NCBI RefSeq assembly: GCF_003334355.1 | Contig: NZ_QOWP01000001.1 | Strand: one strand, 5' to 3' | Origin: Escherichia coli | Lineage (GTDB): Bacteria; Pseudomonadota; Gammaproteobacteria; Enterobacterales; Enterobacteriaceae | DNA length: 64,000 nt | Shown: positions 62,943 to 62,989 of the stretch, in pieces | How positions within the stretch are numbered: the stretch's first letter is position 1 | Layout of the letters: every line of letters begins with the position of its first letter | The notes under the pieces: model-generated | Databases searched by the model: none | What the model was told of the DNA's origin: nothing | The model's input: the letters and a program-made list of their open reading frames with translations, nothing else | Program-made: the position numbers and the translations under genes

Positions 62943-62989
62943 CCCTCCCGGAGAGGCTCACCCCTCTCCTTTTTCGCAGGCATAACACG

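Follow-up and report, generated by a model that had tools for sequence, protein, structure and literature searches.

It is textbook knowledge that the genes of one operon can be expressed unequally by means of internal terminators and protective hairpins. A case close at hand is the leaky Rho-independent terminator that separates rpsU from dnaG in rpsU-dnaG-rpoD, a neighbouring operon. Terminators within operons that tune stoichiometry, and that are repressed by nearby ribosomes, have been documented (PMC4824070). In the reporter operon of that study, the tR2 terminator was "almost completely repressed" when it stood a few bp past the stop codon, and only at distances above about 30 bp did termination become maximal, which the authors attributed to the first ribosome blocking the folding of the hairpin (PMC4824070). 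Protective 3′ structures that reshape operon stoichiometry have been described for many E. coli operons (PMC5927463), and unequal expression within an operon is known to be set by hairpins at enzyme/transporter junctions (PMC4824070, PMC5927463). We found no paper describing the hairpin element that lies between ttdB and ttdT. This hairpin is real, robust, conserved, and terminator-like. The best-supported reading, and the most likely one, is that a conserved intercistronic stem-loop acts at the RNA level, where it would lower ttdT relative to ttdAB or decouple the two.

The hairpin at the ttdB-ttdT junction

The window (the whole 64,000-nucleotide stretch of DNA that was analysed) ends in the E. 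coli folB-plsY-ttdR(-)-ttdA-ttdB-ttdT region. A query of 1.3 kb spanning the site was matched in all 5426 complete genomes of E. coli, and the 101 nt surrounding the hairpin are identical to the K-12 MG1655 record. The identities of ttdA, ttdB, and ttdT were confirmed from the RefSeq annotation of identical E. coli DNA, and the operon designation in the literature is ttdA-ttdB-ygjE (Oshima & Biville 2006, as given in citing papers). The junction reads TAA CCCTCCC GGAGAGG CTCACC CCTCTCC TTTTT CGCAGGCATAACACG ATG (Table 1). An earlier, sequence-only reading of this DNA had placed GGAGAGG-CTCACC-CCTCTCC followed by TTTTT in a 47-nt gap between the two genes; the bases, the coordinates, and the gap length were all correct, and the annotation bears out both flanking genes. 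The hairpin begins 7 nt past the ttdB stop codon. In the Shine-Dalgarno sequence of ttdT, the AGG lies 9 nt from the ATG, and most relatives have CAGGG instead of CAGG. The stop codon of ttdA and the start codon of ttdB overlap as ATGA (62337-62340), the classic translational-coupling arrangement, here of dehydratase subunits, which contrasts with the hairpin-bearing gap ahead of ttdT.

Table 1. Features of the ttd region, in positions of the window
Feature	Position	Strand	Basis
ttdA, L(+)-tartrate dehydratase alpha subunit	61429..62340	+	annotated in RefSeq on DNA of 100% identity; coordinates mapped to the window
ttdB, L(+)-tartrate dehydratase beta subunit	62337..62942	+	ORF list and annotation
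ttdB stop codon TAA	62940-62942	+	ORF list and annotation
C-rich 7-nt spacer CCCTCCC, from ttdB stop to hairpin	62943..62949	+	sequence reading and alignment
Hairpin 5′ arm GGAGAGG	62950..62956	+	sequence, terminator scan, folding
Hairpin loop CTCACC	62957..62962	+	sequence; comparison of alleles and genera
16-nt pyrimidine run containing the T5 tract	62960-62975	+	sequence
Hairpin 3′ arm CCTCTCC	62963..62969	+	sequence, terminator scan, folding
T5 tract, followed by CGC; putative termination point	62970..62974	+	sequence, terminator scan
Weak Shine-Dalgarno-like CAGG for ttdT	62977..62980	+	sequence reading and alignment
ttdT, L-tartrate/succinate antiporter, 5′ part (runs off the window)	62990..64000	+	annotation
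ttdT start codon ATG	62990-62992	+	sequence

In the terminator scan, the hairpin had a stem of 7 pairs (5 G-C) and a loop of 6 nt. Its energy was -12.3 kcal/mol by RNA folding, and the stem-loop alone came to -10.9 kcal/mol in our own scoring. All seven pairs formed with a probability of 0.98 to 1.0 in every context tried, from 120 to 700 nt, and the pair probabilities were equally high when the RNA was cut at the end of the stem, as in a nascent transcript. No competing structure appeared in any folding context, the sole alternative being a 4-bp CCUC/GAGG helix. A 36-nt excerpt folded marginally better than its shuffles (z-score of -1.8), and when the spacer was taken whole (47 nt), 0.8% of the dinucleotide shuffles had a simple hairpin as good as its best one. 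The same spacer test gave p = 0.001-0.023 in nine other lineages, so that the hairpin was better than dinucleotide shuffles in 10 representative lineages including E. coli, all within that range. Hairpin-plus-T matches in the region numbered 11, compared to 7.1 expected by the terminator scan. The exact arms occurred once in the 64-kb window (0 expected), and with this single occurrence the element does not belong to the REP/BIME repeats. Two other candidates were rejected: a minus-strand terminator, CCTCTCCGGGAGG, which has a 5-bp stem, a tail that is not T-rich, and no converging gene, and a small ORF served by the Shine-Dalgarno-like GGAGAGG, which has no start codon downstream.

Because there is no alternative structure, the site is not a classical attenuator. 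The sequence-only reading had allowed for an attenuator as well as an intrinsic terminator, and in the regulated sense of the word this did not hold: with pair probabilities of at least 0.98 nothing competes with the hairpin, there is no leader, and Rfam gave no match at the site, either for the locus at permissive E-values or for the whole window at gathering thresholds.

Further analysis concerned the likeness of the hairpin to intrinsic terminators. Its dimensions and its position downstream of a stop codon agree with the stem (about 5 to 14 bp) and the loop (3 to 8 nt) of that class. A consensus scan, with a minimum of 5 T in 8 for the U-tract, listed the hairpin and the T5 tract as terminator-like. 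Every simple hairpin of the window was then scored on both strands by a d'Aubenton-Carafa-type discriminant with modern energies, of which only the ranks should be relied on. The ttdB-ttdT hairpin reached d = +18.8, with a tail score of 4.57, and ranked 8th of the 182 window candidates on both strands. The hairpin directly 3′ of glgS scores practically the same (+18.9), and those after yqiK and the ibs genes lie around it in the ranking. The gap also had the best score among the 15 same-strand gaps of 15 to 150 nt in the neighbourhood. Terminator prediction, which had been proposed as a check, found the site. Comparable hairpins are carried by gaps at unit boundaries and were not found in the accepted-operon gaps ygiF-glnE-hldE, nudF to parE, and mdaB-ygiN. 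By its score rank and by the comparison of gaps, the ttdB-ttdT site looks like a transcript end by local standards. Judged from its sequence, the E. coli element has every anatomical part of a Rho-independent terminator of weak to moderate strength.

Several other RNA elements were seen in the window. The top two window scores belonged to near-identical strong terminator hairpins at 49510-49534 and 49886-49910 (+), which flank tandem ibs/Sib type I toxin-antitoxin repeats; Rfam placed two SIB_RNA copies on the opposite strand, at 49717-49866 and 50092-50241 (-). Matches at the Rfam gathering level were an FMN riboswitch upstream of ribB (40874-41022, -), the ES173 sRNA (12825-12888, +), and the nucleoid-associated RNA naRNA4 (CssrE) (58161-58231, -). 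The terminator 3′ of ttdT differs between genera. In Citrobacter (L009:5128-5154 and the same place in others) it reads GGGGCGGC-loop-GCCGCCCC followed by TTTTT, and in E. coli (L001:5160-5190), where it lies between ttdT and tsaD, which converge, it reads GGTGCCGGA...TCCGGCACC and its T-tail is poor.

Conservation among relatives

A scan for TtdB, with one genome per species, yielded 44 loci. In 32 of these, a ttdT homologue follows ttdB after 44 to 77 nt. This gene order was found in Escherichia, Citrobacter, Salmonella diarizonae, Trabulsiella, Intestinirhabdus, Entomohabitans, Enterobacillus, Serratia, Atlantibacter, Yersinia, Aeromonas, and Leminorella. A hairpin lies shortly 3′ of the ttdB stop codon in all of the 32 to 33 loci that have ttdT next. 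The spacing is constant, with 7 nt from the stop codon to the hairpin and ∼20 nt from the hairpin to the ATG.

Conservation was distributed unevenly over the junction. Expressed as identity to E. coli (mean over 22 relatives), it was 0.96 for the 14 stem bases, compared to 0.58 for fourfold-degenerate ttdB sites and 0.41 for the loop and upper stem. The 7-nt pre-stem spacer CCCTCCC had 0.86, the 8 to 9 nt 3′ of the stem had 0.71, and the stretch from the Shine-Dalgarno sequence to the ATG had 0.68. Between genera, the loop thus evolves at the neutral rate or faster. Among E. coli it varies as well (A/G, with or without a C), and the differences within Escherichia are confined to the loop and the flanks. 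One of the seven sampled E. coli alleles is without the first stem pair, whereas the stem is invariant in the others. Conservation of the stem together with neutrality of the loop is what marks a selected RNA (or DNA) hairpin.

Because a MAFFT alignment of all 31 spacers misaligned the loops of unequal length, it was replaced by a covariance-model alignment. Among 28 close relatives, 92% of the cells pair. Double-sided changes were found in two of the nine pairs: two Citrobacter have G-C in place of A-U, and Trabulsiella has A-U in place of G-C. Several G-U intermediates were also seen. The covariation score exceeded that of 498 of 500 shuffles, which for related sequences is suggestive only, as the tool itself warns. 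The covariance model matched the orthologous site only, apart from weak matches to unrelated terminators. For the distant genera it gave weak scores (E = 0.03-1) that lay among minus-strand matches, and these loci were analysed one by one. In them the position of the hairpin is kept and the stem sequences differ: the arms are GGGAGGCG/CGCCTCCC in Enterobacillus, GGAGGGG/CCCCTCC in Yersinia, GGGGAG/CTCCCC in Aeromonas, and GTAGCGCC/GGCGCTAC in Leminorella. Taken together, the comparison supports a stem under purifying selection and a freely evolving loop, with some compensatory changes.

The U-tract was the least conserved feature across the relatives. In E. coli it reads UUUUUCGC, with 5 U, and is shorter than in strong terminators; 6 to 8 U-rich residues are typical of the intrinsic class. 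Other Escherichia have TTCTT or GTTTT, and most Citrobacter have the C-interrupted tails CTCTTTCG, CCCTTTCG, or CCATTCGC; most Citrobacter, reading CUCUUUCG or CCCUUUCG, score near or below zero. An extreme example was found in Entomohabitans, where the tail (CCGCAGCA) has no T at all. Across the orthologues, the number of T in the 8-nt tail ranged from 0 to 6, and about half of them score at or below zero despite stronger stems (9 bp, -16 kcal/mol). Hairpin and U-tract are therefore not kept together: the hairpin is present in 33 of 33 orthologues and the tail is variable. With a U-tract this short and this poorly conserved, the conserved function of the hairpin may be something other than termination.

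Pasteurellaceae and some others have ttdB as the last gene, and it is followed there by a strong canonical terminator. The E. coli-type hairpin may therefore have descended from a canonical ttdAB terminator of this kind.

Three arrangements in individual relatives were also observed. In the Pasteurellaceae loci L033-L035 (700-3700), a ttdT-like transporter gene lies upstream of ttdAB, and the terminator 3′ of ttdB is long and canonical, not a small hairpin. In Trabulsiella (L016 and L030, 3636-3657), an in-frame ATG (ATGCAGGGATACGACTATGGCA) precedes the usual start of ttdT by 18 nt and could lengthen TtdT by six residues. In Citrobacter (L005:3635-3647, with equivalents in L006, L009, L010, L018, and L020), the CCCU or CUCU after the hairpin pairs with the ttdT Shine-Dalgarno sequence (AGGG or AGAG), with UUCGC as the loop between them. 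The pairing may form a small hairpin, absent in E. coli, that occludes the Shine-Dalgarno sequence.

Transcript ends and the role of the hairpin

The ttd operon is assumed to be barely expressed in standard growth media. The published E. coli Term-seq tables, which cover such media, contain no plus-strand 3′ end at ttdB/ttdT, and at ttd the 3′-end data of Adams 2021 contain only an antisense end, in ttdT. The only expression table that we found is from AIEC LF82, grown in minimal medium with and without bile salts and with no tartrate added. The RPKM values were 237/49 for ttdA, 317/66 for ttdB, and 724/312 for ttdT. The fall in RNA-seq signal into ttdT that a terminator at this place was expected to give is thus absent from this table: RPKM does not fall across the junction, and ttdT is above ttdB. 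The change between the two conditions was 2.3-fold for ttdT compared to 4.8-fold for ttdAB. With no added tartrate, and with strand-specificity unstated in the text searched, the table is weak evidence, but it does point to a partial independence of ttdT. No sigma-70-like -35/-10 match was found in 62500-63000 in standard and relaxed scans, so that ttdT, with no such promoter in ttdB or in the gap, should depend on read-through.

The proposal of an intrinsic terminator therefore stands in part. Its anatomy, its score, and the selection on its stem argue for it, whereas the tract of only 5 U, the variable tail, the nearness of the stop codon (7 nt), and the lack of a Term-seq end in the tables searched argue against it. 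We place at about an even chance the reading in which the element is a leaky intrinsic terminator and a 3′-end stabilizer that together lower ttdT relative to ttdAB or decouple it. A fraction of the RNA polymerases coming from the ttdA promoter would release the transcript at the U5, around 62974-62978. Release would produce a ttdAB-only mRNA with its 3′ end capped by the hairpin and shielded from 3′ exonucleases, and the other polymerases would read through into ttdT. The outcome would be less transporter mRNA than dehydratase mRNA from a single promoter. We infer that termination would be leaky and sensitive to the coupling between ttdB translation and transcription, because the hairpin begins so close to the stop codon that a ribosome following the polymerase closely should hinder its folding. 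A stricter form of this dependence, which we think quite unlikely, would be a terminator gated by the ribosome: a ribosome close behind the polymerase would block the folding of the hairpin, so that transcription of ttdT would continue only with efficient translation of ttdAB, and lagging translation would stop the polymerase after ttdB. If so, the enzyme/transporter junction would contain a built-in sensor of translation coupling that is conserved across Enterobacterales.

The main rival of the leaky terminator is a pure barrier to exonucleases, because selection across the genera preserves the stem and not the U-tract. Here no termination takes place; RNase E would cut the ttdABT mRNA in or before ttdT and 3′ exonucleases would be halted by the hairpin, so that a stable ttdAB segment would remain through differential operon decay, as in malEFG. 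The relatives that combine stronger stems with poorer U-tracts fit this well, as do a hairpin too near the stop codon for efficient termination and the many E. coli operons in which protective 3′ structures are described. However, E. coli has a clean T5 and a weaker stem, whereas a pure barrier would call for the reverse, LF82 shows ttdT at or above ttdB and hence no stabilized upstream segment, and there is no ttd entry in the supplements of the study that described such structures (Dar & Sorek 2018; PMC5927463). We therefore regard the barrier as unlikely, although a serious competitor. Far less probable is a chance inverted repeat, or a decaying and now functionless relic of an ancestral ttdAB terminator. 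The small z-score of the 36-nt excerpt and the meagre enrichment of hairpin-plus-T matches would be explained by it, and lineages with ttdB last have real terminators at this place. But neither chance nor decay accounts for a stem so much better conserved than neutral sites and its own loop, invariant in six of the seven sampled E. coli alleles, or for distant genera that keep the hairpin with altered stems and for its significance against shuffles in 10 lineages.

Hairpins can insulate a ribosome-binding site, and pyrimidine tracts can serve as landing sites for ribosomal protein S1. The element could therefore have a translational role, which is improbable in our estimate, by insulating the ttdT ribosome-binding site, by offering its pyrimidine tract to S1, or both. 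In relatives, including Citrobacter, this would extend to C-rich flanks that pair with the AGGG Shine-Dalgarno sequence and make translation of ttdT depend on ribosomes that finish ttdB. Such a role agrees with the constant spacing on both sides of the hairpin, the conserved CCCTCCC spacer, and the ATGA overlap that couples ttdA to ttdB and sets ttdT apart; the CCCU/AGGG helix is pairable in 90% of cells, the CCCU or CUCU tail pairs with the Shine-Dalgarno sequence in many Citrobacter MFE folds, and one matched change (CUCU/AGAG) is present, in L005. However, the outer helix, which would sequester the ttdT Shine-Dalgarno sequence, has no double-sided covariation and was dropped as a candidate for this reason; the Shine-Dalgarno sequence of E. 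coli is only AGG and is unpaired in the MFE fold; and the constant spacing may simply reflect close kinship. There is also a somewhat lower likelihood that the hairpin marks a true boundary of transcription units, ending most ttdAB transcripts, with ttdT expressed mainly from its own constitutive internal promoter. A genomic SELEX peak of the RpoD holoenzyme between ttdB and ttdT has been listed as a putative "Internal Promoter" (PMC3946193). The higher RPKM and smaller change of ttdT in LF82 are in line with this, and for the related enzyme/transporter pairs fumB-dcuB and dcuA-aspA both separate transcripts and cotranscripts are known. But the study gives no promoter sequence for the peak and calls such peaks putative (PMC3946193), the promoter scans found no -35/-10 match even under relaxed rules, the published designation is that of one operon as far as the citing papers give it, and a terminator of 7 bp and U5 at 7 nt past a stop codon is unlikely to be strong.

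If the leaky terminator and stabilizer is the correct reading, one TtdR-controlled promoter would give an abundant cytoplasmic dehydratase and less of the membrane antiporter, and a conserved internal terminator/stabilizer at ribosome-interference distance would be added to those known. This is a modest point on a single operon and opens no new question. Its practical value lies in operon annotation (ttdAB and ttdABT transcripts) and in the engineering of tartrate and C4-dicarboxylate transport.

Comparison with known systems

The ttd element resembles the leaky intra-operon terminators in having a G+C-rich stem-loop and a U run in a short intercistronic gap, with an upstream product needed in larger amounts and a downstream gene that requires read-through. 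It differs from them in that its putative terminator has only 5 U and lies 7 nt after a stop codon, and in that its U-tract is not conserved in sister genera. Compared to classical attenuators (trp, the pyrBI leader, and riboswitch terminators), the resemblance is that a nearby ribosome could block the formation of the hairpin. Unlike these, the ttd site has no leader peptide, no antiterminator fold, and no Rfam family, and the hairpin lies between structural genes and not in a leader.

The element also has one feature of a protective 3′ stem-loop, a stable and conserved structure at the 3′ boundary of a cistron. Like the stem-loops of differential decay (the malE-malF REP; PMC5927463), it is a stable 3′ structure of the upstream cistron that is conserved across Enterobacteriaceae. 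However, it is a single small hairpin of 7 to 9 bp with one copy in the window and no REP repeat, and it is intergenic and not within the downstream ORF. Finally, as in fumB-dcuB and dcuA-aspA of E. coli C4-dicarboxylate metabolism, an enzyme gene adjoins its cognate transporter gene. In those pairs cotranscription is partial, not full; in ttdAB-ttdT the gene order and the elements differ, and separate ttd transcripts are putative.
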